A DNA stretch of 64,000 nucleotides from Candidatus Marinacidobacterales bacterium (GCA_965219415.1 CBDCNP010000002.1:2656001-2720000), one strand, 5' to 3'; shown: positions 6,125 to 40,375, numbered from the stretch's first letter. Notes: a model not told the origin generated them from the letters alone. Numbers and translations are program-made.

Positions 6125-6246
6125 TTCTTTTTTGCGGATCACAAGAGACGAGAGCGCGAACAAACGACAAAATCATGCCGGCATGGTCCCGGCAGACCGG
6201 AGACTAATCAAGTTCGGTGCGCCCGGATGAATAAATAGAAGGCACA
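6125..6246 (-). mobile_element. Two stacked rve-element ends (type B ending 6143, type D ending 6246)
   Basis: TTTTTGCGGATCACA; CGGATGAATAAATAGAAGGCACA, with a ~75-bp copy at 32092-32168. Confidence 0.7.
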
Positions 6247-6578
6247 GGTGGCTCAAACTGTTAAGCGACGAGCGGCGGAAGAAAATCTCGGACGAGGTCC
6301 GAACGGCCAAGGAGAAAGACGAGTTTGTCAGCGAGATCGTGTTCGCTCAACTCTCGGACAAGGCCACGATCGTACGCAAGCAGAGGCTGGTCTCTGGCAG
6401 TGGGACACAACTGCGACGCGATTTCAAAGACATCTGTAAGCTGCGCGATTACATCGCTCATGCAAACTACTATGCCGAGAAACCTGAAGCTGCTCGTCAA
6501 GTCTGCGAGGTTGTCAAGAAGATTCGCCGGATCCAAAAGGACCTGCTTACGGAAATCGAAGATCAATCACTCCCCTGA
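6247..6578 (+). pseudogene. C-terminal fragment of a HEPN (RxxxxH) protein, probably Swt1-like/CBS-HEPN
   Basis: ...FKDICKLRDYIAHANYYA...; homologous to 33857-34122. Confidence 0.55.
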
Positions 6579-6597
6579 AGAGATCGGCCGTGGAGCC

Positions 6598-6827
6598 CGT
6601 CCTGTGCCAAAACTCGGCCCTTTTGAAATAGACCATAAATCAGCATCTTGGTGTCTGTGTTCGCGACCGGGCCAAGGGCCGTAGGCTTTACAATCGTCTG
6701 GCCCGAGGGAGCCTCTCCACGTTCATAAGACGCCGGTGGCGTCGTCGGGTCGATCGGCGCGAAAGCAGCTGAACATGGCAGGTCTAAACCGCGCAATCAA
6801 CGCTGGATCGACTTTTTGCGGAGCACA
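6598..6827. mobile_element. 230-bp hybrid mini-element (type-A left end, type-B right end)
   Basis: Begins CGTCCTGTGCCAAAACTCGGCC, ends GGATCGACTTTTTGCGGAGCACA. Confidence 0.75.
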
Positions 6828-6880
6828 GTGAGCATCGAAAAGTCCACCACCCCCGGTGGGAGGAGCGCACGTAGGCAAAG
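6827..6880 (-). pseudogene. 54-bp diverged pilM fragment
   Basis: Encodes LCLRALLPPGVVDFSMLT versus LCLRAPLPPGVVDFSMLT at 63482-63535. Confidence 0.8.
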
Positions 6881-7135
6881 ACCATGTACCCACGCCCACG
6901 GTCGGCGAAGCGGGCAACTGGCAAGCGAGAGCGGTCACTGCGAGGCACCCGAGAGTTTCATGCGGTCGATATACTCAAGGAACTCGATCTTGCGGCTGAA
7001 ACGGTGGACATTCTTGGCGATTCGGCGAAAGACCTGAAGGCCGTGATGAGCGAATCGGGTCACGACCTCACCCTCGTCGATCTCAGCGCCGTGATGGACG
7101 AACCGTGACCGAAGTGAGTAGGCTTCCTTAACATC

Positions 7136-8570
7136 GAAAGTGTGCCAATCTCAGTTGGGAATTGAAACGGCTCCAAACCCCGTGGTTTGATGGCGTTGGA
7201 CAAAACAAAATCAAGCCGCGAAGAAAGGAGCCGAGATGGGAAGTCTGCTACGTTCGGTCAAGAAACGCAAGAAGTCGCGTCGTTTGGGTGAGGTCGAGAT
7301 GGTGAGGCACGAGGATTACGGGGAACTCGCGCTGGACGCCAAGGTAGAGATGATCCGTTGGTTGGTCCCCCTTGGTCTAATGCACGTTCACGAGTTGCTC
7401 GACGACGAAGTGAAGGCGTTGGCGGGAGAGCGATACTCTCGCAAGGACGAGCTGGAGCGCGGTCGCCGTCCCGGAAGCAACCCGGGCACGGTAGGGCTTG
7501 GCGGCCAGCGGGTACCGATCCGTGTGCCACGGGTTCGGAGCATCGAGGGAGGAGAGATTCCGCTTCGCTGCTACGAGGCGGTGAGCCACGGCGGTGAGGT
7601 GAATGATCTTCTGCTGAAACGAGTTCTCTACGGAATCTCTTGTCGCAACTACGAGGCGGCAGCGGAAGCGATTCCGGGCGCCATCGGGCTGTCGAGCTCA
7701 ACGGTGTCCCGAGGGTTCGTGCAAGCGAGCGCTGCGAAGCTGCGGGAGATGCAGGAACGGGATCTGACCGGCGAGGATGTGGTGGCGCTGTTTCTGGATG
7801 GGAAGACATTCGCCGAGGCAACGATGGTCGTGGCTCTGGGCATCACGCTTTGCGGGGAAAAACGCTTCTTGGGCTTCGTGGAGACGGACACGGAGAACGC
7901 GCAGGTGTTGACGCCGTTCCTGCGTTCACTGCTCGAGCGGGGACTCGATATCTCCCAGGGTCTGCTGGTGATCATCGACGGCGGCAAGGGTCTCCAAGCG
8001 GCAGTCAAGAAGGCATTCCGTAAGCGGGCCCTGATACAACGCTGCCAGTGGCACAAACGTGAAAACGTAGTGAGCTACCTGTCCAAGGGCGAGCAGGCGT
8101 CATGGCGCAAGCGGCTCCAGTGGGCCTACAACAGGCCGGAGTACGAAGAGGCCCTCACTGCGCTCGAGCAACTCCACGGTGAGTTAGAAGAGCGGAACCA
8201 ATCCGCAGCTGGCAGCCTGGAGGAAGGCCTCGAGGAGACGCTGACGTTGCATCGACTCGGCGTGCACGCGGTGCTGGGCCGTTCGTTCAAGACGACGAAC
8301 TGCCTTGAGTCCGTCAATGCTCTCGTCGAGGAACGCTGCGCGAAGGTCGACCACTGGAAGAACTCGAGCCAACGCCAGCGCTGGTTGGCAACGGCGCTCG
8401 TAGACATCGAACCGCGCTTGAGGAAGGTGGTGGGCTACCGCCATCTTCCCAAGCTTCGCGAAGCTCTCAAGCGGGAACTGAAGATCGAGGCGAAGACATC
8501 AACCGTATCGAAGAAGAAGGTCGCTTAAACGTGAGCCGTGGAGAGTTTCAACTAAGAATGGGCTTGACTC
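7136..8570 (+). mobile_element. Complete IS256-family element with 8-bp TSD TTAACATC
   Basis: TSD at 7128-7135 and 8571-8578; imperfect 22-bp TIRs; intact transposase. Confidence 0.92.
7236..8528 (+). CDS. IS256-family DDE transposase
   Basis: LFLDGK, IIDGGKGL, QRCQWHKREN, TTNCLESVN motifs. Confidence 0.93.
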   Translation: MGSLLRSVKKRKKSRRLGEVEMVRHEDYGELALDAKVEMIRWLVPLGLMHVHELLDDEVKALAGERYSRKDELERGRRPGSNPGTVGLGGQRVPIRVPRVRSIEGGEIPLRCYEAVSHGGEVNDLLLKRVLYGISCRNYEAAAEAIPGAIGLSSSTVSRGFVQASAAKLREMQERDLTGEDVVALFLDGKTFAEATMVVALGITLCGEKRFLGFVETDTENAQVLTPFLRSLLERGLDISQGLLVIIDGGKGLQAAVKKAFRKRALIQRCQWHKRENVVSYLSKGEQASWRKRLQWAYNRPEYEEALTALEQLHGELEERNQSAAGSLEEGLEETLTLHRLGVHAVLGRSFKTTNCLESVNALVEERCAKVDHWKNSSQRQRWLATALVDIEPRLRKVVGYRHLPKLREALKRELKIEAKTSTVSKKKVA

Positions 8571-9870
8571 TTAACATCCTTCAAGGCGGCCGTCCGTTCC
8601 TGTACCGTGTCATAGGCAAACATCGCTAGTCGTTCGCTCAAGTTGTGAAGAAATAGGCTCCGAACTGTCTCGAAGCAGAATCGATTCCAGCCCGGCGCAG
8701 TACCAGATCATCTTCTCTCTGAGATCTGGCGTGAGTGCCGCCCGACCGAACGTGACCAAACCCATCAGAAGTGCCTCCTCGAACTCGGTGCGTGAGGCAC
8801 GCGCGAGGATATCGCAAACTTCCGAGAGGCAGACATCGAGCAAAATGTCACGCAGTTCGTCGCTAAGTACCATCGTCCTCGGGTGGTCAATGATCGCCCC
8901 GGAAGTGCTCAGCAACTTCCCCGTGGGGTCGGTAACGAAAACGCGGTTCGCCCGCCGCGGTGCGTAACCCCAGCGAGAAACCCTTGATGTGACCCCAGGG
9001 GGTGTGAAGAAGCGAAGCACACCGACCGCCAACTCAACTCGCTCACAGGCGATTTCTTGTGCTCGAATCGGCTCTCCGAAGACGCTGGTCTCCGCTACTG
9101 CGAGACCCTGAAAGTCTTGGCGCATCGATCGGCACAACTCAGCATGTGCTCCGGCAGACGGGCTATCAACCTGCTTGGATTCAAGCTCTTCGAAGATGTG
9201 CTCTGGGAAGGTCGACAGCGTGACCGATCCGAGCGTCAGCGGGGACTGCACATGGAGATCAGACACCGGGAAGAGTAGTCGGTGTTCTGCTGCCGCGCTC
9301 TCCAACGCCTGTAAGAGGTAGTCTACGCACCCCGTGGAACCCTGTCCACGGTGGCGCTCCATCACCCACTCGAAGATCTGCGTGCGCAAGAACTCAACAC
9401 TCGCCGTTGACTGGAACGGTCGGACCCTGGCCATCGACAACGCGAGGGCCTCCAGCTTCTCGTAGTCCGGTCCGATCAGACCTGTGCGCAAGCCTCCAGG
9501 CTCGGCGACGGCGATACCCGTTGGCCTTCCGTGGCGGTCCCGCCAGCCCAGATGGACATCGCCGTCGATGTCTGCGTCGGTAAGCGTTGGCCCCGTGAAA
9601 ACGTTTGGTGTGAAGCTAGGGCGTTCCCGAGAAGGGGCATCTCGGAACGTAGCAACACGGCCGAGTAGACTCCGTCCCAGCTCTTCGAACCGCCTTCTGG
9701 CATCCGCGTGCAACTGCTCGCTCAGGTGGCCCATGGCGTAGGGTTCTCTCGCGGGAAGAGTCGGCGTCTCGGAGCACTACCGCGCCGGTCTGTGCCGCCG
9801 GCGTGCGCGGAGCACGACGGTCCGAAGACGGATGGTCCTGCGCCGTGTACCCGGTGCATGTGCGGTAGTC

Positions 9871-11054
9871 TCATGCAAGAGTGCCACGCGCCGACCCGTC
9901 GCTCCGGAACATCTCAGACGTGAGAGAAGTCATCGGGGTAGCAGCAACTCCCGTGCTGGACTCCCCCACGTGGGCGACCGCGCGCGCCGCATCGACGATC
10001 TCCGCGAATCGGCGTTGAAGATCGAGCGATGGAAGAAACACGCCGCAGGTTCTCACATCGGAGGTTGTAATGGTGTTGAGACCGGACGTGGTCTTACCAC
10101 GTCGCAGCAGGTGCTGGCGCCCGGACGACGAATTCAGGTAGGCAGCGGCGAATGCGGGCACAAGCCGGGAATTGTCAGGGCGCGCCCGGATGAGGTGGTT
10201 TTGGTGCACACAGCTCCGGATGTGACCATCCCATACCGCGACCCTGCCGATCTCGTTGGCGTTTCCGTGGCCCTCGACGATCAACAAGTCGCCTTGCACC
10301 AACCGGGTTCGCATGAGTTCACTTTCGGTGAGACGGATGAGCTTGATGTCGTCAAGAGCAAGCCGATCTCGAAGCACGTTCGCTACTCTGAGATACGGCG
10401 CTTCCATCGGGTAGACGCTTCGCTTCTTCGTGACCTGCAGCCCTCCCTGCACGTCGCACACGTCGCCAATCCCGCGTTGTGGCCAGCGCATGGGGTTCCG
10501 GCCTGGATCCCCGAACATCCTGATGAACAGCGCCGGCACGAACTCCCGCCAACACTCCGCGGTTCGCTTCCGCAGCCTCTCGATCCTGGCGGCCCGGTTC
10601 AGGATGTCCACGATCCGCCTCTGCTCGTCGAGCGGGAGAAGAGGAATTGGAAGTGATTTGAGATCCTTTTGCCTTCGTAGCGATTGGGTGCTTCCTTGTC
10701 CTTTGGCAACGAGTTGGGGTTCGCGGTACTTGATCATCCAGTGCACGAAATCACGGAGCGCTACAGTTTCATCGGGACGAACAGCCGCCAAGCCTCCGCC
10801 CGATGCAGCATCGCTCTCCTGCGATATTTGTAGGACCTATCGGAGCACGAACTGAAATGAGGATGTCGCCAGCTTCGGCGATCTTCCTCGGGGCCACACA
10901 CCACTTCCGAGCGATAGGACTAACCTTCTCCGAAGTCTGCCTTTCCCTGAAAAAAAGGTAAACCCAAGCCGTTCTCGTTGTGTGTACTGCCCGGAGGCGA
11001 CTGGCCAGCGGTGATAGTCGCGACTTCTCCGAGCGGGACTACATCTATACTCAT
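9871..11054 (-). pseudogene. hsdS: Type I RM specificity subunit, N-terminal region frameshifted
   Basis: IPLLPLDEQRRIVDIL, LFIRMFGDP, PSLDLQRRFAEIV; start MSIDVVPLGEV overlaps hsdM stop. Confidence 0.85.
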
Positions 11055-12684
11055 GTACCAGCCGCCTCCCGCACCGCATCGGCCAGTTCGTCGATCTCCC
11101 CAAGAATATCCGTCTCAATGGCCCGCAATTCATCCAGGATTTCCAGCGGGTCGCGGTGTTCGACCTTCGAGCGATTCTGCGGCCGGTGGCGCCCTGCGCT
11201 CAAGTTGAAGTCGGTAGCACGAATAGCGTCAGCTCCAGCGAACCACCACTTTTCGGTCCAGTCGGCATCCGGGTCGCGGTTTCTCCATTGCTGTCGGCGC
11301 TCCTCCCGGTCTCGGAACGCCGCGATCAGCCCGGGCAGATCGTCCTCCTCAATCGGGGTGTCGTGGTTGGCGTCGAGCTTGAAACCGTCATTGTCGGCGT
11401 GCAGGAACATCACCCGCTGGGTCGCGCCGCCCTTGCGAAAGACCAGCACCGAGGTCTTGACGCCGGAATAGGGATTGAATACTCCTCCCGGCAGGGAGAG
11501 CACAGCCTCGACCGTGTTGTTCTCGACCAGTCGGCGGCGCAGCTCCTTGTGCGCTCCGGTCGAGCCGAACAGCACGCCTTCGGGCACCACGACACCGCAG
11601 CGACCGCCCTCCCTCAGGTGGTTCAGCATGTATTGCAGGAACAGAAGCTCGGTCTGCGCCGTGCGGCCAATTTTGACTTCCTCGACGATGCGGTCCTTGT
11701 CCAACCGCCCGGAAAAGGGGGGATTGGCCAGGATGACATCGAACCCATGCCCCGGCAGACCAAGCTCTGCCTTGGCAGTACGGTCAAGGGAACGGGTCAA
11801 TGCGTCTCGGCGCAGAACGCGCACCTTCTCCAGACCACGCAGGGTTCAGGTTCATGGTCGCAAGGCGGACCATCTGCGGGTCCACATCGGCCCCATAGAA
11901 GGTCGCGTCGTGAAGTCGGCGCACCGCGTCCCGGCTCAGCATATCGCCGAGGCCGCGCCGGGCCGCCTTGCCATCGGCTTCGACTTCCTCGATGCCGGCG
12001 GGTGACGAATTCGCCAGCCGGATGTGGTCCCATGCGCCGACCAGAAATCCGGCCGTACCCGCTGCCGGGTCGAAGATCGTCTCCCCGATCCGGGGATCGA
12101 CAAGCTGGACCAGGGCACGGATCACATGGCGAGGGGTACGGAACTGGCCGAGTTCGCCCGCTTGCCGGATCTGGCGCAGCACGTGCTCGAACAGGTCGCC
12201 TTTCGTGTCTGCGTCTACCCGGTCAAGATGCAGGTCGTTCAACTTGGCTGACCACTTGGGTGAGCACCGTCGGCTCATCAATCACCAGCCGCGCTCCGTC
12301 CATGAAGTCCGTAACGCCTCTGGCCGCAAGTTCGGCATGAAACGGAAAGACTTCCTCCCGCACCCAGTTCACTAAGCGCTCGCCGTTGAGCGCATACGCC
12401 CAGGAGGATCAACGCAGGAGTTCGCGCGGAACGACCTCAACACCTGGCTCGCGGGCATTGCGCGGGTTGCGCAGGTTCCAGTTGCCCTCGAAGGCACTGA
12501 CGTGGGGTTCAGCGCCCGGCCGCCTCGCGGCACGCACGCGCGCAGCGTCCGCCGCCTCGTACATGTAAAAGTAGATCAGAAAGCTCAGTTGTTCGGCGTT
12601 CTGGGCGGGGTTTGGGTAACCACCGCCGAACAGGTAGTCGCGGATGCGGTCGATCCCGTGCCGAAGTTCAGGAGTCATGGGCAT
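11051..12684 (-). pseudogene. hsdM: Type I RM methyltransferase subunit with stop and frameshifts
   Basis: GQFRTPRHVI, FDPAAGTAGF, ILANPPF, VVPEGVLFG in ORFs 12409, 11784 and 11051. Confidence 0.9.
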
Positions 12685-12697
12685 CTGAATGCTCTCG

Positions 12698-14842
12698 CTA
12701 AGCCATGGGGCGACTGCCACCGGACTGATCCGTCGCGTCAGCATGGCCGAAGACCGTTGCGTTGAGCCCGGCAATCAGCCTGCCAAGGGATTCCTCGCCG
12801 CCGAACACTCGCCGCGCCTGGTCGTATCCTCCCAGGGCGGTGAAGGGGTGCTCATCGAAATCGTAATCCACGAAGGATTCGATGTTCAGGGCATCAGCCT
12901 TCACCCGGCTACCGATCAGCCCCGCCCATCGGGCCTGTTCGGCAGTGGTGAACCCTTGCTCGCCTTGCCAGGCCTCGATGCGCAAGCCGACTTCGGCCGC
13001 GAGCGCCTCGTGCTCCGGCGTACGTACGATCCGGCCATTCTCGTCGAGAGTCACCCACTCGCGGGTCGCGGGATCGATATGGTCGTCCACATCGAGGGTC
13101 AGCAGGATGCGCGGATCGTCCGGCCCATCCCGCTTTGTCCTTTCCTTCACGACGCCGCCATCCATGCCGTCATCGTCGTCGCCATGGAAATCCGTCACGC
13201 CCACGAAATCAAAGATCGTGAAGCCGGTCTTGCCGATGTGCTCGGCCTTGCGCGTCCCACGCCCCCGCATCTGGCGGTAGAGGATACCGCTCTTGGTGAA
13301 CCGTGCCATTACCAGATTGACTACCTCTGGGCAGTCGAAGCCGGTATCGAGCATGTTCACACTGACCAGAATCTGGGGAAACTTCTCCTCCTTGAAGCGC
13401 TTGATGATCGCGCTCGTATCCGGTCCGGGACCGTCGCCCACGTCGCTCACCACAAAATCCGCGAAACGTGTCGTTGGATGCGGTTTCAGATCCGCGAAGT
13501 GCTCATCGAGCATCTGCGCCAGCGTCTCCGCATGGCGCCTCGTTACGGCGAACACAATGGTCTTGCCTCCAGGAAGGAAAACGCCTGATCCCATCCTTAC
13601 CCATGAACCCCTTCTCGAAGCAGTCACGATACTCGCGCACCATGGCGCGGTTGCGCTCGGGAATCGTGAATTTCCGTTCCAGCGCTTGCGGGTCCACGGT
13701 GATGCTGTCCGATTCGGCGAACAGTTTCTCGAACTCAGCCTTTGCGGCGGGGGCCATGGCGCTCCAGTCGAGTTCGTCGCGGCCGACCGCGAACCCATCA
13801 TCGGCAGCGGTCTTCACCGTCATCGCCTTGTAGATGCGATAGGGAACGAGATGGCCGCCTTCGATGGCCTGCCGCAGCGTGTATCGGAAGGTCGGCTCCT
13901 CAAGCTCGAAAAAGCGCAGCGTGTCGCGCACGAACAGGCCGTCCTCGGCGTCGGCGGCTGCATCCGCCTCGGCAGTGCATGGTGTGGCGGTCAACCCCAG
14001 TTGAATGCTGTCGAAATGCCGGAGCACGCCACTCCACTTGCCGTATATCGAGCGGTGGCATTCATCGGTAATCACCAGATCGAAGTAGCCAGGCGACAGT
14101 TCCCGGTACTCTGCAATCATCGTCTGCAAAGTCGCAATCGTGATCCGCTTGGCGCGGTCGAACCCCCGGCCAGGGCGCAACACATGGCAGGGATAATCGC
14201 GGAGATGGTCCGTGAAGGCATCCTCAGCCTGTCCCGCTAGGGCGATCCGGTCCACGAGGAACAGGACGCGCGTGACAAATGCCGGCCTCGAACAGGCGCT
14301 TGACAAAAGCCGCTGCCGTCCGGGTCTTGCCGGCGCCGGTTGCCATCTCGACCAGCAGTTTGCGGCGTCCGCGCAAAATCTCGGCCGACAGCACCTCGAT
14401 GCAATCGATTTGGTAGTCACGATCGACAATCCTGCTGTCGATTGCTACGCTGGACAGGTCTCGGCGAACCGTGCGCACGGCAATCCGCCGCTCCAGGTCA
14501 TCCTGCGAATAAAGGCCTGCGATCTTTCGGGCATGCGTGTTGGTTTCGCGGGTCTAGGAACCATACTTCCTCGCCGTTTGAAAGGAAGACAAACGGAACG
14601 TCGAGTTGTTCGGCATAGTGGCAGCCCTGGTCGCGGGCATCGACGGGATTGATGCTGGCGCGCTTGGCTTCAAGTGCCGCCATAGGGCGCCCGGACCGGT
14701 CGCAGAGCACGTAGTCGGACTGTGTGCCGTCCGGCAGCGCGCATTCGAAGCGGACACTCACGCCGTCAGTGAGATCCCAGCCGGCATCCCTCAGCAGGGC
14801 GTCGATCTTGACGCGGGAGAAGGCTTCGGTCGTTCCGCTCAT
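12698..14842 (-). pseudogene. hsdR: Type I RM restriction subunit (EcoEI-like), multiple frameshifts
   Basis: ALEAKR, MATGAGKT, DECHRSIY, GLTATP, MLDTGFD, QMRGRGTR. Confidence 0.9.
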
Positions 14843-15261
14843 GCGTCGTCCCATGGATTGAAGAGTTCGACCCCCATATCCTCGAAGTCCCGAACGTTGC
14901 GCGTCGCCACCGCCATGCCGCGTGCCCGGGCAATTGCCGCGATCTGGCAGTCCGCCGGTGCGACGGCACGCCCTGCGAACCGGCGCTTGGCGGCGATATT
15001 CGCATAAGCACGCGCCGCCCCGCTGTCGAACGGCAATATGCGGTTCTCGAAGGCGGCGTGCAGCATCGTCTCGATATCTGAGACGAGCGTTTCCCGGCGC
15101 TGGCCTGCCGACATGATCGCGGCTCCATAGCGCAGTTCGGATTCGCCGATCGCCGAGAAGAACAGGTCCTTGACGGGGTGCTCGGCAATCCACGCCTCGA
15201 CTGCGGGGTCCGGCGACGTGCGCATCAACTCCGATACGACATTGGTGTCGAGCAGGATCAC
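14839..15261 (-). CDS. vapC: PIN-domain toxin (VapC/FitB)
   Basis: ILLDTNVVSE, DCQIAAIA, ATRNVRDF, NPW. Confidence 0.92.
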   Translation of the reverse strand: MILLDTNVVSELMRTSPDPAVEAWIAEHPVKDLFFSAIGESELRYGAAIMSAGQRRETLVSDIETMLHAAFENRILPFDSGAARAYANIAAKRRFAGRAVAPADCQIAAIARARGMAVATRNVRDFEDMGVELFNPWDDA

Positions 15262-15271
15262 GGCTGTTCCC

Positions 15272-15514
15272 TCAATCGAAGGATGGTGGCTCACGACCTA
15301 CATCGCGCGGTGGCAACTCCAGGTCCACACCCTTGGAAGGCCCGAAATGCACACGGATGATGTCTGCTAGGTTATAAGAACTTGGCCTGCGTTCGACCGC
15401 ATCCCGCAGGATCAAGCGCGCCTCCTCTTCCATGGAACGGCCGTTGCCCGCCGCACGGACGCGCAGCCGCGACTTCACATCGTCGTCGAGATTGCGGATA
15501 GTAATGCTGGCCAT
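15272..15514 (-). CDS. FitA-like ribbon-helix-helix antitoxin
   Basis: MASITIRNLDDDVKSRLRVRAAGNGRSMEEEARLIL, directly upstream of the PIN gene. Confidence 0.9.
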   Translation of the reverse strand: MASITIRNLDDDVKSRLRVRAAGNGRSMEEEARLILRDAVERRPSSYNLADIIRVHFGPSKGVDLELPPRDVGREPPSFD

Positions 15515-15615
15515 CGTGACACCTCCTTGCGTCGAGTCTATATTATGATTGCGCTGCAATCAAGACCGCTTCCCCTGCATCCATCCGGAGTGTGGGAATA
15601 TTAGAATTCGGAGGC

Positions 15616-18204: not shown

Positions 18205-18263
18205 CGTACGAGATGGCCCGTACGTCGTACTGCTCGGAGCGGGAGCCAGCCGAGCCGCGTTCC
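18205..18263 (+). pseudogene. SIR2-like N-terminal motif fragment
   Basis: Translates GPYVVLLGAGASRAAFP, cut by the element end at 18264. Confidence 0.5.
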
Positions 18264-20958: not shown

Positions 20959-22276
<1,318 letters not shown>

Positions 22277-30299: not shown

Positions 30300-31835
30300 A
30301 AGCTCGCCGTCGGAAAACGGTTACCAGGAGAGCTTCAACGGTAAGCTACGCGACGAACTGCTCAACGGAGAGATTTTCTTGAAGGAGTGGGCTTGATCCG
30401 GTTTCGTAGACGGTTTAGTTAAGCTGGCGAAGTCCTCATCCGTCGTTCAAACTCGGCCGGACTGACCTGGCCGAGGGTCGAGTGTCGTCGTCTCTGGTTG
30501 TAGAATACCTCGATGAAGTCGAAGAGGGCCATCTTGGCCTCGCCGCAACTGAGGAAATGCTCCCCAAGCTCGTGCTTGACCGTGGAGAACCAGCTCTCGA
30601 TGACGGCGTTGTCGTAGCAGTTGCCCCGTCGGCTCATGCTCCCGGTCATGCCATGCGTCTCAAGGAGACGTTGGTAGTCTTTGCTGGCATACGGACTGCC
30701 CTGATCGGAGTGATGCAAGAGCCCCGCGGCCGGTTGGCGACGTTTCAGTGCCATCCGCAACGCCTTGATAACCAGGTGACGGTCGTTAATAGCACTTACG
30801 GCCCACCCAACGAGGAATCGCGAGTAGAGGTCGAGGAGCGCCGCGAGATAAAGCTTCCCGCCGCTGCCGATCACGAACTCGGTCGTGTCCCCGACCCACC
30901 GTTGGTTCGGCGCATCGGCGACGAAGTCTTGCCCGAGCACATTGGCCGCGACGGGCTGGCCATGACCGCTTACCGTCGTGCGCTTGAAGCGTTTGCGTAC
31001 TCGAGCAATGAGGCCTTCTGCCTGTTTCAACCGAATCACCCGCTTCCGACTCACTCGATACCCCTGCTCGTGCAGGTCGTGATAAATCCGCGGACTCCCA
31101 TAGGTGCGGCGACTCGCCTCATGGGAGGCACGAATCAACACGCGCAACTGGCGGTCCCGGCGCGCGTGGGCCGACGGCGGCCGACGTACCCAGGCATAAA
31201 AGCCACTCCGAGAGACGTTGAGAATCTGACACAGGTGAACGACCGGTACGGTGGCCTTCTCCGCCTGGATGAACGCGAATCTTACTCGCTCTCCTTCGCG
31301 AAGAAGGCCGCGGCTTTTTTTAAAACGTCGCGCTCCACCCGCAACCGCCGATTCTCTTTGCGGAGCCGCCGAAGCTCCTCGCGTTCCACGCCCGTCAAGC
31401 CCGTCCGGCCCTTCGTCCGATCGGCCCGGGCCTGACGGACCCAGTTGCGAAACGCCGATTCGGTGAGGTCAAGCTCCCGGGCCACCCGACCCACGCTCTG
31501 GCCCTCATCAAGCACCAGCCGGACCGCGCCTGCCTTAAACTCGTCATCAAACTCCCGGCGGGGTCGCCGGGGCTGCGTTGTCTTTGCCATTGTGGACATC
31601 GTATCCGCCTTTCAGAAAGTGTCCACGAAACTGGATCAAGCCCAGAGGTCAAGGTCGTGATCGAAAGGTGGCGGCAAGAGTTCAATCGCCTTAGACCCCA
31701 CAGCTCGTTGGGTTACCGACCGCCGGCGCCGGAAACGATTTGGTTGAAACCGGCTCCGCTACGCCGGCTTCAACCAGCTCTTGTCAGCACCGAATGACTG
31801 AGATACAACGTGGTACTAACCGTGGGGTCAGATCA
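30300..31835 (+). mobile_element. IS3-family (IS407-like) 3' remnant interrupted by a second IS3
   Basis: [22 protein letters not shown] left of the insert; VVIERWRQEFNRLRPHSSLGYRPP right of it. Confidence 0.7.
30388..31644 (-). mobile_element. Complete IS3-family element with 3-bp TSD GAG; orfA 31282-31599, orfB about 30419-31285
   Basis: TIRs TGGGCTTGATCC(G/A)GTTTCGT(A/G)GAC; WVGDTT, HHSDQGSPY, DNAVIESWFSTVKHE. Confidence 0.92.
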
Positions 31836-32168
31836 GCACTCCGCGAACGAGTTCAAATCCGGGCTCCGTGCGGGCAGCTTGACGGGCGCGACGCCAACCG
31901 CCTCGATGGTCCGGTAGAACGACTCGCAAAACTTCGAGTCCCGGTCGTGAATGAGGTATCGGCTTGGGGACAGAAAGCCGACATCTGCCATGGTCACGTT
32001 GCGAGCCACTTGAGTCAATCCATTCGTTCGGATGCGGCGTGATGCCGGCGATGTGGACTCGACGGGTAGCCAGGTGTATGAAGAACAGACGAAATCATGC
32101 CGGCATGGTGTCGGCAGACTGGAGACTAATCAAGTTCAGGGCGCGCGGATGAATAAATAGAAGGCACA
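31836..32168 (-). mobile_element. rve transposase fragment plus type-D end
   Basis: YLIHDRDSKF, LPARSPDLNSFAE; ends AATAAATAGAAGGCACA. Confidence 0.7.
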
Positions 32169-32240: not shown

Positions 32241-32864
32241 CTAATCTTCAGACGTGTAGGTGAAATTCTTGGCGAAACCGCATCGGCCGCTCACTTCCCA
32301 ACGCAACGGGGCATCGTCCACTCGAAAACGGTCGGCCACGATTTCCTGTCCCGGCTCGTCGGCGCCCGGAATCCCACAGAAGACGGGTGCGTCGGAGACG
32401 GCCGGCCTCGCGGTCCTCGCCCGAACGAAGTCCGCCACCTCCATTGTCTCCCCGCGCGGGGTGTGGTCGAGCGCGATACGGGCCGAACGCACCGCATAGA
32501 CGTCGTTAATGGCGTGAGCGAAGTTGCGGAGAGTGCCGCCACCTCTTCGGCCCAGGAAGATGTCGGTGAGCACCTCTTTTTGCTTGGGGCCAGCCGATTC
32601 GTCTAGGTAGAGAACCACACGCCACGGCGGCCACTTCGAGCCCGCCCGCGACGGCGCGCTTCTTTCATAGGTACCAGCCAGCACAACCGAAAGGGTGGAA
32701 AGATCCGTCTCTCCTGAGCGCCCCTCGCGAATACGCCAGGAAAGGGCAAAGTCGCACGTGTCATACGAGGCACGACGAAGATCACGATGGACTCGGCAAG
32801 GGCATACCGCCTCGCAATTGCATACTTCATAGTAGGTTCCCGTTAGATACCAATCTTCTTTCAT
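32241..32864 (-). CDS. DUF1326-family protein
   Basis: W.LTGTYYEVCNCEAVCPC, WRVVLYLDESA, DIFLGRRGG. Confidence 0.8.
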   Translation of the reverse strand: MKEDWYLTGTYYEVCNCEAVCPCRVHRDLRRASYDTCDFALSWRIREGRSGETDLSTLSVVLAGTYERSAPSRAGSKWPPWRVVLYLDESAGPKQKEVLTDIFLGRRGGGTLRNFAHAINDVYAVRSARIALDHTPRGETMEVADFVRARTARPAVSDAPVFCGIPGADEPGQEIVADRFRVDDAPLRWEVSGRCGFAKNFTYTSED

Positions 32865-33284: not shown

Positions 33285-33856
33285 CGAGGGGACCCGCTAT
33301 TCACCGAAGCGGTACGTGGGCTGTTGAGAGGTTCAGGCGTGAAGCCCCTCCGCCTTCCCGCTAATAGTCCGAATCTGAACGCATATGCGGAAAGATTCGT
33401 TCTCTCCATACGTGGAGAGTGTCTCGACCGCTTCGTACCTCTCAGTGAGCGACACCTGCGGACAGCAGTAACCGAATACGTCGTGCACTATCACACAGAA
33501 CGGAACCACCAAGGTCTCGGCAACGAGCTCATCACACCTCTGCCGGCAAGCCCGACTGACGCTGGCCCCATCGTGTCGCGAGAGCGACTTGGGGGCATTC
33601 TCAAGTACTACTGCCGTGCCGCCTAGATTGTGGCCGGGACGGTAGCCCCTCGGTGGACTCGACCGGTGTAGCGTGGAAACACAGCTTCAGGAACACGCTT
33701 GGATATTCGCTCTCGACCAGGTGGTCGTCTGCATGGTGACGACCCGTCCGCCCAAGACGATTGTAGAGCCTACGGCCCTTGGCACGGTCGCAAACACAGA
33801 CACTAAGTCGCTGATTTATGGCCTATTTCAAAAGGGCCGAGTTTTGGCACAGGACG
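33285..33856 (+). mobile_element. 3' part of a type-A rve element with its right end
   Basis: [45 protein letters not shown]; ends GTTTTGGCACAGGACG. Confidence 0.85.
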
Positions 33857-34122: not shown

Positions 34123-34614
34123 AAGGAGAGGTACGCTCCAAAGCTAAAGCAGAAAAAGGCGCCAGAGAGAAGACAAGATTTTTGTGCAAAGGCAGAATTC
34201 GATCTCAAATGGCGGTTCCAGTCACGGCTTCATGGTTGGCAAGGTTAGACGACAGAGTTGTGTCATTGAGTTCCACAAGGCATCGAATGGTGTCGTCTGT
34301 TGACTATGATCATCCGGCGTTGAACTTCGACAGTACTTCGAATGTGAGGTTGAAGATTCCGGTGAGGATCTTTCTGCTTACAAGATCGTGGACTTTACGA
34401 TTTTGGGATCCGATTAGAAGAAGCCTATGAAGCCACAACGAAAAATAGGCAGGACCAATCCCTTCAACAGGACCGATGTTTGGCGAAGGGCCCGGTGACC
34501 GCCGGATCTGTCCCGCTTCTTGTGGAAATAGGAATGGCGTAACCTCCGAATTAACCAAAACCAAACCGCACATGGAAAGGCGAGGAGGAGGATTACGCCA
34601 TGAAGAAGCCTACC

Positions 34615-34646
34615 CGTCCTGTGCCAAAACTCGGCCCTTTTGAAAT
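34615..34646 (+). mobile_element. Type-A end stub, cut by IS3
   Basis: CGTCCTGTGCCAAAACTCGGCCCTTTTGAAAT. Confidence 0.8.
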
Positions 34647-34647: not shown

Positions 34648-35961
<1,314 letters not shown>

Positions 35962-36115: not shown

Positions 36116-38854
36116 ATGAGGCAGCTTTTCCACGATAGTGCCACCGGGGCCAACGCCACCCTTCTTTGCGGATTGACCCCGAGCGGCCGCATTGACGTCC
36201 ACCCCGGCTCGCCCGATGAGGGCACGAGCCTGTCCGCCGCAGTGCAACGGCGCATTATCGATGCGTTCAACGTGGGGCGCGGGCATGGGGTGTTGCATCT
36301 GGGAGCGGGAGAGCTGAGCACCGACCTTCACCCTACGCTTTCGTACTGGCGCGACATCGGGAAGGCCTTGGTGGTCAGGGTCTGTGGCGGGTTGGATCCA
36401 ACCGACCCAACGTCTCTGGTCGTGCCCGAGCCCGCCCCGGACGAGCTCTCGGATTTCACCCAGGCGGCCCCTCCCATGCAGGGCGCCGAGCTGATCACAC
36501 CCTCGATGCTCGGCGAGCTGTGGCGCGACATCGGGAAGGCCCTGACCACCGAAGCAGCACGGTTTGAGCTTGGCGTCCAGGGATACCTGAAGAAGCAGGG
36601 CTCGGTATGGAACGTGGTCGGCCGGGTCTGTTTCCACCTGGCCGAGAACAAACGCGACCCCTCGTATCCCTTCGCCTTCATCGCGACCTATGTTCACAAG
36701 GTCTCCAAGGAGGCCAAGCCTCAGCACCTGCCCCTCGGGCGAGCGCTCAAGGACTACGCCGGGGCGAAGAACCGACAGAAACTACTCGCGCTGCTCTCTC
36801 CCTTGTCGCGCGCGGCCGGGCAGAGCGCGTTCATCCGCGAGCTGGTCGACTCCGGCGACATCTACCACCCCCTGTCCTGGAGACCCGCGGAGGCGCATCA
36901 CTTCCTCTGCGAGATCGCACTGTACGAGCAAGCCGGTCTCGTTGTGCGCATGCCCGACTGGTGGGGAGCCAAGAGTCACCCCCGTCCCAAGGTCTCCGTG
37001 TTGGTGGGCGGCAAGGCGCCGTCGACGCTGGGTATGGACGCGCTCCTGGACTTCGACGTCAAGCTGACCCTCGACGGCAAGAATCTGTCGACGAGGGAGA
37101 TCGAGATGCTGCTCGCAGCCAGCGAGGGTCTGGTGCTGGTCAAGGGGAAGTGGGTCGAGGTGAACCGGGACAAGCTCGGCGCGGTTCTCGAACAGTGGCG
37201 GGACGTGCAAAAGCAGGCCCAGGCCGGCGGAGTCAGCTTCGGCGAGGCCATGCGCATGCTGGCTGGCGCCGAGCTCGATGGCGACGACTCGAACGGCACC
37301 GAGGACGCTCGACAGGAATGGTCGGAGGTCATCGCAGGAAAATGGCTTTCGTCAAGGCTCGACGCGCTGCGCTCGCCTGAGCTCCGGGCCGAGATCGACT
37401 CGGACGCGGGCTTGCGGGGCGAGCTCCGTCCCTACCAGAAGCTCGGTGTGGAGTGGCTCTGGACCCTGCGCGGCCTGGAGCTCGGCGGCTGCCTTGCCGA
37501 CGATATGGGCCTGGGGAAAACCATCCAGGTGCTCGGTGTGCTGTCCATGAGCCGGCGCAACAAGGAGAAGGGTACCGACCTCCTGGTCGTGCCGGCCTCG
37601 CTCGTCGACAACTGGCGCCTGGAGATTGAACGCTTCGTGCCCCAGATGAAGTTTCTCATCGCCCACCCGTCGCGCATCCCCTCGCCCGAGCTCAAGAAGC
37701 TGCCAAAGGAGAAGGTGGATGCCCACGACGCGGTGATCACCACCTACGGCACCGCCATGCGGACCGAGTGGATGAAGTCGCATGCTTGGCGGAACGTAAT
37801 CCTCGACGAGGCCCAGGCCATCAAGAACCCCAGCGCCAAGCAAACCAGGGTGGTCAAAGCACTGGACTCGCGGTGGCGCCTAGCCCTCACCGGCACACCG
37901 GTGGAGAATCGCCTCGGCGACCTGTGGTCGATCTTCGACTTCCTGAATCCGGGGCTGCTAGGCTCGGCGAAGGCCTTCAATGGCCTGTGCAAATCCATGG
38001 CGTCGGGTAAGCAAGGAGGCTACGCGCCGCTGCGCAGGCTGGTGCAGCCGTATATTCTAAGAAGGCTCAAGACCGACAAGAGAGTCATTGCCGATCTGCC
38101 CGACAAGACCGAGGTCAATGCCTACTGCCTGCTGAGCAAGCGCCAGGCCGCCCTGTACAAGCAGTCGGTCGATGAGATGAAGAGGGTCATCGAGGAGCTG
38201 GAAGGCATCGAGCGGCGCGGTATGGTCCTGGCCTTTCTGATGCGCTTCAAGCAAATCTGCAATCACCCGTCCCATTGGCTCGGCGACGGAAGCTACGAGG
38301 CCGAAGACAGCGGCAAGCTCGCCCGGCTGCGCGAGCTTTGCGAGTCCATCTCCGCGCGCCAGGATAAGGTGCTGGTCTTCACCCAGTTCCGCGAGATGAC
38401 GGCGCCGCTGTCTCGCTTTCTGACCGAGGTCTTCGGTCGCGGCGGCCTCGTGCTGCATGGCGGAACGCCGGTCAAGAAGCGCCAAGGGCTGGTAAACAGG
38501 TTTCAGGAGGACGACCGGGTACCGTTCATGGTCCTTTCTCTAAAGGCTGGCGGTACTGGGCTCAATCTGACTGCGGCGTCCCATGTCATCCATTTTGACC
38601 GATGGTGGAACCCGGCGGTTGAAAACCAGGCCACGGACCGCGCCTTTCGCATCGGCCAGAAGAAGAACGTACTCGTTCACAAGTTCATCTGCCGGGGCAC
38701 GGTGGAGGAACGCATCGACGAACTGATCTCCGGGAAGCAGAAGCTCGCAGGCAAGCTCCTTTCAGGTGGTGCGGAGTCGGCCTTGACGGAGATGAGCAAC
38801 GAGGATTTGATCTCTATGGTGTCCCTCGACTTGAGCAGCGCCTTGGAGGAATAG
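36116..38854 (+). CDS. SNF2-family helicase/ATPase
   Basis: LADDMGLGKT, ILDEAQAIKN, LTGTPVEN, SLKAGGTGLNL, WWNPAVENQATDRAFRIGQ. Confidence 0.95.
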   Translation: MRQLFHDSATGANATLLCGLTPSGRIDVHPGSPDEGTSLSAAVQRRIIDAFNVGRGHGVLHLGAGELSTDLHPTLSYWRDIGKALVVRVCGGLDPTDPTSLVVPEPAPDELSDFTQAAPPMQGAELITPSMLGELWRDIGKALTTEAARFELGVQGYLKKQGSVWNVVGRVCFHLAENKRDPSYPFAFIATYVHKVSKEAKPQHLPLGRALKDYAGAKNRQKLLALLSPLSRAAGQSAFIRELVDSGDIYHPLSWRPAEAHHFLCEIALYEQAGLVVRMPDWWGAKSHPRPKVSVLVGGKAPSTLGMDALLDFDVKLTLDGKNLSTREIEMLLAASEGLVLVKGKWVEVNRDKLGAVLEQWRDVQKQAQAGGVSFGEAMRMLAGAELDGDDSNGTEDARQEWSEVIAGKWLSSRLDALRSPELRAEIDSDAGLRGELRPYQKLGVEWLWTLRGLELGGCLADDMGLGKTIQVLGVLSMSRRNKEKGTDLLVVPASLVDNWRLEIERFVPQMKFLIAHPSRIPSPELKKLPKEKVDAHDAVITTYGTAMRTEWMKSHAWRNVILDEAQAIKNPSAKQTRVVKALDSRWRLALTGTPVENRLGDLWSIFDFLNPGLLGSAKAFNGLCKSMASGKQGGYAPLRRLVQPYILRRLKTDKRVIADLPDKTEVNAYCLLSKRQAALYKQSVDEMKRVIEELEGIERRGMVLAFLMRFKQICNHPSHWLGDGSYEAEDSGKLARLRELCESISARQDKVLVFTQFREMTAPLSRFLTEVFGRGGLVLHGGTPVKKRQGLVNRFQEDDRVPFMVLSLKAGGTGLNLTAASHVIHFDRWWNPAVENQATDRAFRIGQKKNVLVHKFICRGTVEERIDELISGKQKLAGKLLSGGAESALTEMSNEDLISMVSLDLSSALEE

Positions 38855-38899
38855 AAGATGCACGAACGCGCTCGTCACAAGAAAGCGTGAGGTGAGCTC

Positions 38900-39745
38900 A
38901 TGGGCTGGTACTCGTGGCGCCCTTACGTCTCCGTGGCAGCGCGCCGCCGTCATGCCGCGAAGAGGGTCGCTAAGATGAAAAAAGCCGGACGCGAGATCTC
39001 ACCGATCGAGATCGTGGGCCGCAAGATCGCAACCACCTTCTGGGGTGATGCTTGGTGCAAGAACCTCGAGTCGTACAGCGACTACTCGAACCGCCTGCCT
39101 CGCGGCCGAACCTACGTGCACAACGGTTCGGTGATCGATCTTCAGATCGAGGCGGGGCGTGTGCGATCTCTCGTCAGCGGCTCCGACATCTATGAGGTGG
39201 ACACCCAGATCAAAAGCCTGGCGAAGAAGCGCTGGACCGACATCAAGGGCCAATGTGCAGGCAAAATCGACTCGCTGGTCGAGCTGCTGCAGGGCTCCAT
39301 CTCCAAGGGCGTGATGGAGATCGTGACCTGCAAGGGAGAGGGATTGTTTCCTGCCCCTCGGGAGATCTCGCTGAGTTGCTCGTGCCCCGACTGGGCGACC
39401 ATGTGCAAGCACGTGGCGGCGACGCTCTACGGCGTAGGCGCACGCCTCGACCACGAGCCGGAGCTGCTGTTCACCTTGCGAGGTGTCGACCCAGCCGAGA
39501 TGGTGGAGGCCGCCGTCGACCAGCCACCGACTGGAGACAAGTCCCGGAGTGGCAGGGTGCTCAAATCCGACAGGCTGTCATCGGTCTTCGGTGTCGACAT
39601 CGATATGGGTGGGGTCTCTGATGACGATCTTGCGCCGCTCGCCAAGAAGAGTCGGCGCGCTGGGCAGACCGGAAGGAAACCAGGTAGGCGTTCTACCTCG
39701 TTCAGGAAGCCGACGGCTCGCGCCGGGACGCGCAAGAAAAAGTAG
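38900..39745 (+). CDS. SWIM zinc-finger protein
   Basis: RLPRGRTY, CSCPDWATMCKHVAA (CxCx6CxH), LFTLRG. Confidence 0.92.
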   Translation: MGWYSWRPYVSVAARRRHAAKRVAKMKKAGREISPIEIVGRKIATTFWGDAWCKNLESYSDYSNRLPRGRTYVHNGSVIDLQIEAGRVRSLVSGSDIYEVDTQIKSLAKKRWTDIKGQCAGKIDSLVELLQGSISKGVMEIVTCKGEGLFPAPREISLSCSCPDWATMCKHVAATLYGVGARLDHEPELLFTLRGVDPAEMVEAAVDQPPTGDKSRSGRVLKSDRLSSVFGVDIDMGGVSDDDLAPLAKKSRRAGQTGRKPGRRSTSFRKPTARAGTRKKK

Positions 39746-39808
39746 AAGGGTGCGACAATACCGCCTGCCCTCCACGAGTGGCCCCAGGACAGGTCTCGTA
39801 GCTCCCGA

Positions 39809-40003
39809 GGCGTTGTTGCACCGCTCTTGGCTGAGAGCGAAATCTGCCTATGGTGGTGGCCGGGGTATGTTTGACCATGAAGTATCCCAAGCGCAGTCGG
39901 TACAAACACGCGAAACAGAAGAAGTACCACGTTCGCAACTGGGCGGAATACAACGAAGGCCTGCGCCGCCGGGGCGATTTGACGGTCTGGTTTGACGAGG
40001 AGG
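39809..40003 (+). mobile_element. IS5 (IS903-like) left end and N-terminal remnant
   Basis: GGCGTTGTTGCA start; YHVRNWAEYNEGLRRRGDLTVWF. Confidence 0.8.
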
Positions 40004-40077
40004 TCCACGGCGTGTACCCGCTGTAGAATTCCCCGGTGCGCAACGCGATGACGTTCTCGTCCGGGTAGGTATTGAAC

Positions 40078-40197
40078 GGCACTGTCAAATTGAGGTCTCA
40101 AGCCCGGAGTGGGTCGCTAGATAATGGGGCTTGAGCACACCGCGTTGCCAACATCTCGGGGTCGGATTGGCCCTGAATGCCTCAATTTGACAGTACC
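40078..40197. mobile_element. 120-bp MITE with IS6-like TIRs
   Basis: GGCACTGTCAAATTGAGG / GGTACTGTCAAATTGAGG (17/18 match). Confidence 0.75.
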
Positions 40198-40271
40198 GGA
40201 GATGGCCCTGATCTCGGCGTGTTGCGCTTCTGTGGACCGTTTCTGCTACGAGATGAGGAGCCGCTGTTCCC

Positions 40272-40375
40272 CGTCCTGTGCCAAAACTCAGCCCTTTTGA
40301 AATAGGCCATAAATCAGCAGCTTAGTGTCTGTGTTTGCGACCGGGCCAAGGGCCGTGGCCTTTACAATCGTCTGG
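40272..40375 (+). mobile_element. Solo ~104-bp type-A end
   Basis: Full CGTCCTGTGCC...TTTACAATCGTCTGG block. Confidence 0.85.

Follow-up and report, generated by a model that had tools for sequence, protein, structure and literature searches.

The 64,000-nt stretch of DNA analysed here (the window; Candidatus Marinacidobacterales bacterium, GCA_965219415.1, CBDCNP010000002.1:2656001-2720000) forms part of an accessory island that contains restriction, helicase and transporter genes and is saturated with rve_3 elements and ordinary insertion sequences (IS). Units of the rve_3 family lie at breakpoints and leave no insertion footprint; they therefore seem to act on the island by cutting and reshuffling, not by simple insertion. 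We infer a transposon swarm whose ends probably join new DNA singly, with deletion and reshuffling of modules as the outcome.

The repeated end motifs of the window represent terminal inverted repeats. They belong to several related IS481-like IS with rve_3 transposases and to short non-coding derivatives of these. Full-length IS span 1.35-1.43 kb (1,348-1,431 bp) and contain a single rve_3 DDE transposase gene; complete A-A, B-B and C-C elements each encode one such gene and no recombinase. The miniature derivatives are non-coding, 55-320 bp long, and have hybrid ends in some cases. Pfam searches of the transposases retrieved rve_3 (1.5e-9 to 1.3e-16), HTH_32 and HTH_21. Their best NCBIfam match was IS481, with 99, 82.8, 93 and 103.9 bits for the four subfamilies, all short of the cut-off of 224, and their IS3 scores were 69-81 bits against a cut-off of 160. 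The A transposase is 53% identical to that of C and 32% identical to that of B. The closest relatives on plasmids reach at most 42% identity and bear no annotation other than 'integrase core domain-containing protein'. The sub-cut-off scores, the rve_3 and HTH_32 domains and these uninformative annotations bear out the first-pass annotation, which had proposed a poorly described family of integrase elements. Our literature search, which did not cover ISfinder, returned no paper on this transposon family and none for 'Marinacidobacterales'.

End motifs were present at all 20 places listed for the window, far above chance. All nine type A ends were recovered with at most two mismatches (shuffle expectation 0.11), including two variants, one reading CTAAAA (18264) and one with a CCT start (27330). 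All six type B (0.25 expected), three type C (0.18) and two type D ends (0.11) were also recovered. The four types first described thus stand, the count being 20 instead of about 19, and so does the pattern common to types A-C, YGT-N6-CMAAAA, whose 16 exact matches (1.11 expected) are all listed termini. Ten termini belong to five complete two-ended units and ten are solo ends, scattered among ordinary IS of the IS256, IS3 and IS5 families as well as genes for defence and transport (Table 1). A fifth end type, seen elsewhere beside a 446-aa relative of the transposase, does not occur in the window.

Table 1. Termini, mobile elements and cargo of the window, in positions counted from its first letter
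Feature	Position	Strand	Basis or remark
Type A ends	6598, 18264, 23999, 25098, 25925rc, 27330, 33856rc, 34615, 40272		motif search, <=2 mismatches
Type B ends	6143rc, 6827rc, 15616, 17006rc, 18656rc, 27490rc		motif search
Type C ends	17302rc, 22417rc, 24069rc		motif search
Type D ends	6246rc, 32168rc		motif search
Solo type B end fragment, 58 nt	6086..6143	-	motif; repeat depth ~31
Solo type D end fragment, 95 nt	6152..6246	-	motif; depth ~143; 89% like 32080-32168
Two-ended A-B unit, ~230 bp, non-coding	6596..6827	+	motifs
IS256-family IS, simple insertion (control)	7136..8570	+	8-bp TSD TTAACATC
Unique 7-kb cargo	8571..15612	.	depth 0; no match in 5 relatives
Type I restriction R gene, three pieces, in 7-kb cargo	12698..15193	-	Pfam
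Full-length B-B IS	15613..17007	-	381-aa rve_3 transposase (15763..16908)
Solo type C end fragment	17054..17302	-	motif
Solo type A end fragment, CTAAAA variant	18261..18342	+	motif
Solo type B end fragment	18528..18656	-	motif; inverted repeat of 15614-15667
Cargo: GmrSD-type restriction gene	18957..20186	-	
IS3-family IS, 1,315 bp	20962..22276	-	this copy without TSD
Type C end fragment, abuts transporter module	22280..22417	-	motif
Cargo: complete BCCT transporter gene	22435..23988	+	
Two-ended A-C unit, 71 bp	23999..24069	+	motifs
IS5-family fragment, cut by A end	24460..25097	-	
Two-ended A-A unit, 828 bp	25098..25925	+	A-type IS with internal deletion, HTH part only
Two-ended A-B unit, 161 bp	27330..27490	+	motifs
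IS3-family IS, ordinary	30388..31645	-	orfA 31282..31599, orfB 30419..31147; family has 3-bp TSD in 12/20
Solo type D end	32080..32168	-	motif
Cargo: DUF1326 gene	32241..32864	-	
A-type IS end piece, 568 bp	33289..33856	-	C-terminal rve_3 part of transposase (33324..33626)
A-end stub, 35 nt	34612..34646	+	cut by IS3-family copy 34647-35961
Cargo: SNF2-family helicase gene	36116..38854	+	module trimmed differently by A ends in three genomes
Solo type A end	40269..40375	+	motif; joined to right edge of helicase module
IS5-family IS, intact	41531..42620	+	

The ends had been said to border rve transposase pieces, and this applies to types A and B: B ends surround an intact rve_3 gene, and A ends adjoin a C-terminal rve_3 piece (33324..33626) and an HTH piece (25148..25621). 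It does not apply to the C end at 22417 or the D end at 32168, where the rve genes beside and near the ends are ordinary IS3-family genes (NCBIfam IS3, 234 and 280 bits) and not the C or D element's own. Likewise, the description of cargo as starting or stopping right at the termini fits the BCCT gene, while other cargo lies 70-770 nt away or is cut within a gene (25926).

The family has 1,199 termini in this 8-Mb genome, a metagenome-type assembly with a contamination estimate of 8.45%. Nearly all of them lie within islands of contigs C3 and C2; on C3, 1,094 of the 1,108 termini are concentrated in 28 of the 57 100-kb bins. Two apparent termini on a further contig (C1:150588 and C1:1382009) were rejected as chance one-mismatch matches inside coding DNA. 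Units fall into classes of fixed length, namely A-D of 147 bp (67 copies) and 178 bp (37), B-B of 93 bp (23), A-A of 316 bp (14) and ~1,427 bp (13) and C-C of 128 bp (9), and A-B units of ~220 bp also occur outside the window. Compared in pairs, the 45 A-D copies that measure exactly 147 bp show a median identity of 98.0%, and 25 pairs are identical. The B-B element of the window is the sole full copy in the genome; GC stands at both of its flanks, too short to count as a target-site duplication (TSD). Related long-read metagenome-assembled genomes contain the same elements.

Inspection of the flanks of the five two-ended units in the window revealed no TSD, as had been stated for its ends. 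Genome-wide, none of 294 two-ended units had a TSD of 2-40 bp, and there was no excess of direct repeats at boundary offsets of up to +/-6. The possibility that same-type pairs elsewhere might have TSDs was also examined, and neither these nor mixed pairs (A-D, A-C, A-B) did. As controls, an IS256-like element showed an 8-bp TSD in 22 of 29 full copies in the same genome (five of seven within the islands, by best-fitting repeat), and an IS3-family element a 3-bp TSD in 12 of 20 (8 of 13 within the islands). The 1,315-bp IS3-like family kept its TSD in just one of six island copies. A young IS5-like family was not used as a control because its TSD was not found at any offset. TSDs are likewise missing from a second short repeat, which belongs to a different family (165 bp, 149 full copies). 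Other families here thus share the TSD-less state with the rve_3 family. Age is not the reason for the absence, since A-D copies are near-identical and the IS fragments cut by termini are mostly 95-100% like their consensus (26 of 30 IS3, IS5 and IS256 fragments, the other four being 79-95%). In the window, the cut IS5 copy matches the intact copy at 41972-42620 with 100% identity in the two stretches compared (24460-24611 and 24639-25107).

The ends are breakpoints between unrelated DNA, as first proposed, and tests of continuation and of paralogous flanks agree on this. None of 107 testable units had both flanks adjacent in any unbroken paralogue. The expected continuation was found within 3 kb for 20 of 273 unit ends, only one at about zero offset, and within 60 kb for 48 of 558 termini. 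Genome-wide, no complementary half-sites were detected beside other termini, save an artefact of two abutted pairs; the same two pairs account for a peak at +3 in this search, which resembles a 3-bp TSD and does not reflect target sites. The DNA before the ends carries a motif, ACCC for type A, AC(C/G)(C/G) for C and (C/G)(C/T) for B and D, which is real and derives from the target DNA. One IS3 site (ATGGACCC, up to the join) was struck independently five times, and its far half was lost each time.

It is unlikely that the family inserts as ordinary IS481- or IS3-like elements and that later homologous recombination among the ~1,100 copies, or adjacent deletions, erased the TSDs and separated the flanks. 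According to the available part of PMC11708052, a TSD is usually missing because IS copies have recombined or because an adjacent deletion has occurred. The extreme repeat density of the islands and the 1,315-bp IS3-like family, with its single TSD, also speak for such secondary events. However, TSDs and contiguous flanks are absent throughout although the A-D unit is young, while ordinary IS of the same islands retain their TSDs. Reciprocal events should, moreover, leave the complementary half-sites that we did not find, and homologous recombination acts poorly on units as short as 147 bp.

Cargo modules shared between genomes of different families are 98-99% identical, and their homology ends at or near termini. 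One case is the BCCT transporter gene, which lies between two C termini of the same orientation (22417 and 24069), with a C end 17 nt before its ATG and an A end 10 nt after its stop codon. This module is 98-99% identical in three other genomes, where its neighbours differ. The junction of the transporter with the A-C unit is common to the window and the genomes G003 and G018, and that of the C end with the transporter to the window and G003; an alignment of 80 kb of G003 around the transporter to the window recovers nothing in common beyond the 2.1-kb module and ordinary IS. In the helicase module, A ends have joined independently three times, each time in another genome and at another point. 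A 2.5-kb unit bordered by a C end and an A end contains non-transposase genes and is present in several copies. A 553-aa serine recombinase gene and a DUF2924 gene are also enclosed by a C end and an A end; tblastn with the recombinase gave 38 matches in the genome, six of which span at least 513 of the 553 residues at 97-100% identity.

The near-identical modules with different neighbours, the transporter between directly oriented C termini and the multi-copy 2.5-kb unit would fit an IS26-style capture array, in which an end-mediated deletion frees a circle of element and adjacent DNA that re-enters beside another copy. We nevertheless consider this improbable: in the assembled contigs, no circle, cointegrate or end-to-end junction was seen, abutted termini are scarce (2 of 352 outward-facing neighbour pairs), flanking elements are mostly fragmentary, of unlike types and in mixed orientation, and many cargo genes are cut short. 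Nor does the transposase belong to the IS6 family, Pfam and NCBIfam pointing only to rve_3 and IS481/IS3-like proteins. IS26/IS6 elements resemble the present ones in bordering unrelated cargo, truncating genes and IS and lacking TSDs as single copies, and differ in the transposase family and in the mixed type, completeness and orientation of the flanking copies here.

The location of the multi-copy recombinase gene between C and A ends, the initial CG of those ends and the likeness of target sites to the end would be compatible with the ends serving as sites for this large serine recombinase, recombining with pseudo-sites without any duplication. This is very unlikely, given that full A-A, B-B and C-C elements encode rve_3 and not the recombinase, that B and D ends start with TGTG, that the first two target bases at empty sites are CG in a minority only (C 38%, G 57%) and that insertion by a recombinase would leave the flanks contiguous. 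An assembly artefact, with false junctions from path switching at repeats, is hardly credible: although the metagenome-type assembly, its contamination estimate, the repeat-dense islands and public-run contigs too short to bridge the junctions (31-letter rule) leave room for it, the longer and more uniform IS256-like and IS3-family repeats of the same islands keep matching TSDs (5/7 and 8/13), the transporter junctions recur in separate assemblies, and path switching would not yield a target motif at the joins. Apparent joints in the public-run contigs proved to be other genomic copies of the ends and not the window junctions, and the gaps in coverage at 32575-32985 and 34219-34600, in three runs, carry no weight either way.

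Among known systems, the family is like IS481 in its length of ~1.35-1.43 kb, beside about 1-1.4 kb in IS481, its single ORF and its rve-fold DDE transposase with an N-terminal HTH. Of its ends, to be compared with the TGT...ACA of IS481, those of types B and D start with TGT. It differs in its scores (83-104 bits vs 224), in A and C ends that start CGTC, with TGT five bases in, in its extreme copy number and in its miniature units with mixed ends. IS481 members make TSDs of 2-15 bp, mostly 6, according to the consulted portion of PMC10045372, in contrast to the 294 units here. The IS3 family has two ORFs joined by frameshifting and a 3-5-bp TSD, and the true IS3 elements of the window score 234-280 bits, unlike the 69-81 bits, single ORF and missing TSD of the present family. 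The short non-coding units recall MITEs, as they have the ends of a coding IS and copy numbers from tens into the hundreds, but they lack TSDs and simple-insertion sites, and many join ends of different IS types. REP repeats tagged with CGTC, described in the accessible text of PMC3733652 as high-copy, TSD-less 20-40-bp palindromes without a dedicated transposase, are similar in their initial CGTC, copy number and lack of TSDs; we dropped this identity, as the CGTC-starting ends here are inverted repeats around an rve_3 gene. The closest precedent comes from Pseudomonas fluorescens SBW25, for which the part of PMC11708052 available reports a de novo IS481-family copy without TSD at a duplication or rearrangement junction between non-neighbouring DNA, the other four copies having 4-bp repeats. 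There it is a single laboratory event, whereas all 294 units follow this pattern here.

With unrelated genes separated by short, imperfect inverted-repeat units and the BCCT gene framed within 10-17 nt, the island has the appearance of an integron. However, the window encodes no tyrosine recombinase (all 12 Phage_integrase profile matches fall elsewhere in the genome), the units carry IS termini, and the cargo, which lies in both orientations, often spans several genes or is broken. Half of the window termini form complete small units and IS are interleaved among them, so that the ordered cassette or capture array envisaged in the first-pass annotation is not supported. Its simpler alternative, nested insertion plus adjacent deletion, comes close to the reading favoured here, but the plain-insertion step was not found for this family.

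Under one-end joining, the transposase would join element ends to motif sites singly, or in step with a rearrangement, candidate reactions being adjacent deletion, intramolecular attack or joining at a break. Each event would give an end a new neighbour at the cost of the intervening DNA. Repeated events would trim cargo to gene edges and re-assort modules, and the island would thus come to resemble a cassette array with no need for a dedicated capture system. The direction of change, deletion as opposed to replacement, is suggested by a comparison of genomes that contains no outgroup. The 45-67 copies of the 147-bp unit are hard to reconcile with one-end joining if the unit never makes a simple insertion. 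The accepted view is that IS481 and IS3 elements insert through a concerted attack and make TSDs, and we know of no IS481 or IS3 mechanism that predicts single-end joins. It is conceivable, and we propose it only tentatively, that the normal reaction of the rve_3 family, a widespread one, is single-end joining next to ACCC-like sites without duplication, not simple insertion, and that the family is a deletion and shuffling engine that trims and re-assorts defence and transport modules and spreads them among the genomes of sponge-associated Acidobacteriota.

TSDs are regarded as a signature of DDE transposition, and their absence is usually put down to later decay. Here, a young high-copy family is TSD-less in 294 of 294 units while neighbouring IS retain TSDs, and every testable unit sits at a breakpoint. 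With its hundreds of events, the family lends itself as a natural system to a question left open in the available part of PMC11708052, that of transposases moving in step with rearrangements. If true, single-end joining would explain how, in symbiont-type genomes, accessory islands are cut back to the edges of genes and come to be exchanged module by module.

All motif positions listed in the first-pass annotation were borne out in the window, which carries 20 termini in total. Type A occurs at 9 places (0.11 expected from shuffles), type B at 6 (0.25), type C at 3 (0.18) and type D at 2 (0.11), and all 16 exact window matches to YGT-N6-CMAAAA (1.11 expected) are listed termini. The window corresponds to G000:C3:2656001-2720000, and the pattern extends to the whole genome, whose 8.05 Mb in three contigs hold 529 A, 189 B, 233 C and 248 D motifs (1,199 altogether, at up to one mismatch). 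These termini are clustered: 1,094 of the 1,108 on contig C3 lie within 28 of its 57 100-kb bins, and 83 of the 86 on contig C2 are in the first such bin. Contig C1 has only five motif matches, of which the two inspected both proved to be chance matches within coding sequence. The A-D element families occur only in islands of C3 and in the initial 100 kb of C2, with virtually none on the 2.07-Mb C1; IS256- and IS3-like copies are present on the three contigs alike.

Across the genome, neighbouring inward-facing ends form two-ended units of sharp length classes. A-D units (one A and one D end) measure 147 bp (67 units), 178 bp (37) or about 90 bp (6), B-B units 93 bp (23) or 55 bp (10), A-A units 316 bp (14) or about 1,427 bp (13), C-C units 128 bp (9) and A-C units 120 bp (8). 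The 1.43-kb A-A element contains a single 371-aa gene with rve_3, HTH_32 and HTH_21, the window's B-B element a 381-aa rve_3 gene, and a 1,348-bp C-C element elsewhere in the genome a 371-aa gene; the A transposase is 53% identical to that of C and 32% to that of B. D ends mainly partner A ends, in the 147- and 178-bp units; a full-length element bearing D ends on both sides was not found. From the element genes, the relatedness of their proteins and the length classes, the four types represent the terminal inverted repeats of sister insertion sequences and of miniature derivatives, some mixed-ended. A fifth end type, which starts CGTCTGGTCAAAATA and is absent from the window, also has the YGT-N6-...AAAA build; it flanks a 446-aa transposase relative (L111, a stretch at G000:C3:3435800-3437800, about 370-1570) and also interrupts IS3- and IS5-like copies at other loci.

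IS481 is the best NCBIfam model for all the transposases, at 83-104 bits against a 224-bit cut-off, and IS3 is the next (69-81 bits, cut-off 160). With the IS481 score so far under its cut-off, and with the best matches on annotated plasmids at most 42% identical and named only 'integrase core domain-containing protein', the earlier description of a poorly described integrase-element family stands. A protein search identified 7,996 of 8,000 scored candidates as relatives; among the 120 matches listed, most are 343-391 aa long and some bear the JGI name 'transposase InsO family protein'. Matches are present in 13 of 21 same-order genomes, counting the window's own and the unpublished G007, and in four of the 21 the scored matches, 93-95% identical, number roughly 95 or more. 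The element-bearing records have the title 'MAG: Candidatus Marinacidobacterales bacterium'.

The reported lack of target-site duplications (TSDs) held genome-wide: at 294 two-ended units, with boundaries shifted by up to 6 bases either way and shuffled pairings as the baseline, no excess of direct repeats of 2-40 bp was found. As a control, an IS256-like element showed an 8-bp repeat at 22 of 29 full copies (TTAACATC at the window copy) and, when scored by the best-fitting partial repeat, was positive in 5 of 7 cases in islands and 23 of 25 outside. For a 21-copy IS3-family element, 12 of 20 copies were flanked by a 3-bp repeat (8 of 13 within islands), and for a 1,315-bp IS3-like element 5 of 13 were. 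Age does not explain the missing TSDs, since pairwise identity among the A-D copies of exactly 147 bp (n=45) has a median of 98.0%, with 25 pairs identical. For the IS5-family element (29 full copies, median identity to the window copy 99.5%), a TSD was undetectable at any boundary offset tested. A 165-bp repeat of another family, with ends GGTGCTTCC...GCAAGCACC, has 149 full-length copies in the genome, 145 of them in islands, and likewise shows no TSD.

Unbroken paralogues served as a proxy for empty sites, many flanks falling inside other multi-copy elements. Both flanks were adjacent (≤40 bp) elsewhere in the genome for none of the 107 units with paralogues for both; the smallest flank-to-flank distance was 55 bp, and ten distances equalled the unit's own length and thus represent copies of the filled locus. 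The expected continuation was found within 3 kb past the unit's other end for 20 of 273 unit ends with paralogues, at approximately zero offset in one only, and within 60 kb for 48 of 558 termini, without a regular partner. No complementary half-sites were found beside any terminus genome-wide, the only peak being an artefact of two abutted pairs. Judged from these flanks, the units are breakpoints rather than insertions. The joining events are recent: young IS families have copies truncated by termini (17 IS3-like, 10 IS5-like and 3 IS256-like fragments, 26 of the 30 at 95-100% to consensus and four at 79-95%); the window's IS5 fragment is 100% identical, over the stretches compared, to an intact copy 17 kb away in the opposite orientation. 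Ordinary insertion, with later recombination or deletion erasing the sites, is weakened as an explanation by the total absence of intact sites in a young family while neighbouring IS retain theirs.

At G000:C3:4879624-4879921, two A-D units in head-to-tail order are separated by 3 nt (GGG), and a 32-nt C-end stub follows after an identical spacer. The arrangement is reminiscent of the junctions formed by abutted ends in IS3-type circles, but it occurs in just 2 of 352 outward-facing neighbour pairs.

The sequence just outside the ends is non-random: A ends are preceded by A (67%), C (59%), C (88%) and C (78%), C ends by A, then C/G, C/G, and B and D ends by C/G, then C/T. Empty paralogues continue past the site with N, G/C, T/C at A sites and with N-C-T-T at D sites. 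In five copies of an IS3-like element, an A end directly follows ATGGACCC; the outer flanks and A elements differ, so the site was hit five separate times, each time with loss of the distal portion of the IS. The motif outside the ends thus belongs to the target.

Ten window termini are both ends of five complete units, and the other ten are solo; ordinary IS are interspersed among them (Table). A good part of the named cargo is of defence type (ISP-like restriction-modification, a broken type I R subunit, GmrSD and SNF2 helicase/DUF3670), and the island looks like a defence island.

Table. Coordinates of units, ends, other repeats, cargo and junctions (window positions unless stated; a slash marks the join)
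Feature	Position	Remarks
A-B unit	6596-6827
Full B-B element	15613-17007	rve_3 gene
A-C unit	23999-24069
A-A unit	25098-25925	internally deleted A element, HTH part alone kept
A-B unit	27330-27490
Solo A ends	18264, 33856, 34615, 40272	33856: 568 bp of element retained, including rve_3 C-terminus; 34615: 35-nt stub, cut by IS3-family copy
Solo B ends	6143, 18656
Solo C ends	17302, 22417
Solo D ends	6246, 32168
IS256-family IS	7136-8570
IS3-family IS	20962-22276, 28951-29859, 34647-35961	28951-29859 a fragment
Second IS3-family element	30388-31645
IS5-family IS	24460-25097, 41531-42620	24460-25097 a fragment
165-bp repeat of another kind	5918-6082, 27991-28086
Type ISP-like restriction-modification gene	1461-3623	cargo
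Type I R gene	12698-15193	cargo, three pieces
GmrSD gene	18957-20186	cargo
BCCT transporter, CBS protein and DUF1326 genes		cargo
SNF2 helicase with DUF3670	36116-38854	cargo
Helicase A-end join, window		...GTTCCC/CG
Helicase A-end join, G003	72 nt farther out than window's	...GATACCG/
Helicase A-end join, G002	36064, opposite side	...CAACCC/ on other strand
Serine recombinase/DUF2924 unit	L099 (G000:C1:1117600-1125100) 2086-4589	no transposase; C3 copies e.g. 3532550-3534208, 5101166-5102824

The transporter module (the BCCT gene region, 22430-23992) is 98-99% identical in three other genomes, G003, G018 and G002, with different neighbours. The G002 copy has neither the C end nor the A-C unit, the G018 copy has the A-C unit past the stop codon and other DNA beyond, and the window and G003 additionally have the C end 17 nt upstream of the ATG. 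The helicase module (the SNF2 helicase region, 35962-40273) is shared with G003 and G002 at 99% identity, and its edges show three separate A-end joins, one per genome; at each, the flank is present in genomes without the join and the DNA beyond differs. Module edges would thus have been cut back independently at ACCC-like sites, which would be why cargo starts and stops at termini. An IS26-like capture array accords with these modules shared between genomes, but circles, whole direct copies and order are lacking. The proposed cassette array was not upheld; a better reading of the region is an accessory island full of repeats in which transposon ends mark where DNA was cut and joined anew.

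The idea that a serine recombinase uses the ends as its sites is raised by a 2.5-kb unit with a C end at one side and an A end at the other, which carries a DUF2924 gene and a gene for a large serine recombinase of 553 aa. The recombinase has 38 matches in the genome, many truncated, and in several copies the distance between the C end and the recombinase stop codon is always 146 nt. However, the full A, B and C elements carry rve_3 genes, and the B and D ends differ. Assembly error at the junctions is unlikely given the TSDs of the control IS and the recurrence of junctions in separate assemblies, as seen in the module comparison.

What is established is a set of IS481-like element ends with no duplication, non-neighbouring flanks, a target-derived motif and recent, repeated events. 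Most likely, the transposase would attach ends to new sites individually or coupled to a rearrangement, which may be intramolecular attack, adjacent deletion or joining at a break; every joining event would swap one flank and lose the intervening DNA. This reading requires the 147-bp unit to multiply without ever making a simple insertion, which counts against it. Joining events of the proposed kind do exist: an IS481-family copy that arose, with no repeat, at the junction of a duplication has been described (PMC11708052). IS481 members are otherwise described as generating 2-15 bp repeats (PMC10045372), unlike the present family, which is without TSDs. The finding bears on the question of TSD-less, rearrangement-coupled transposition.
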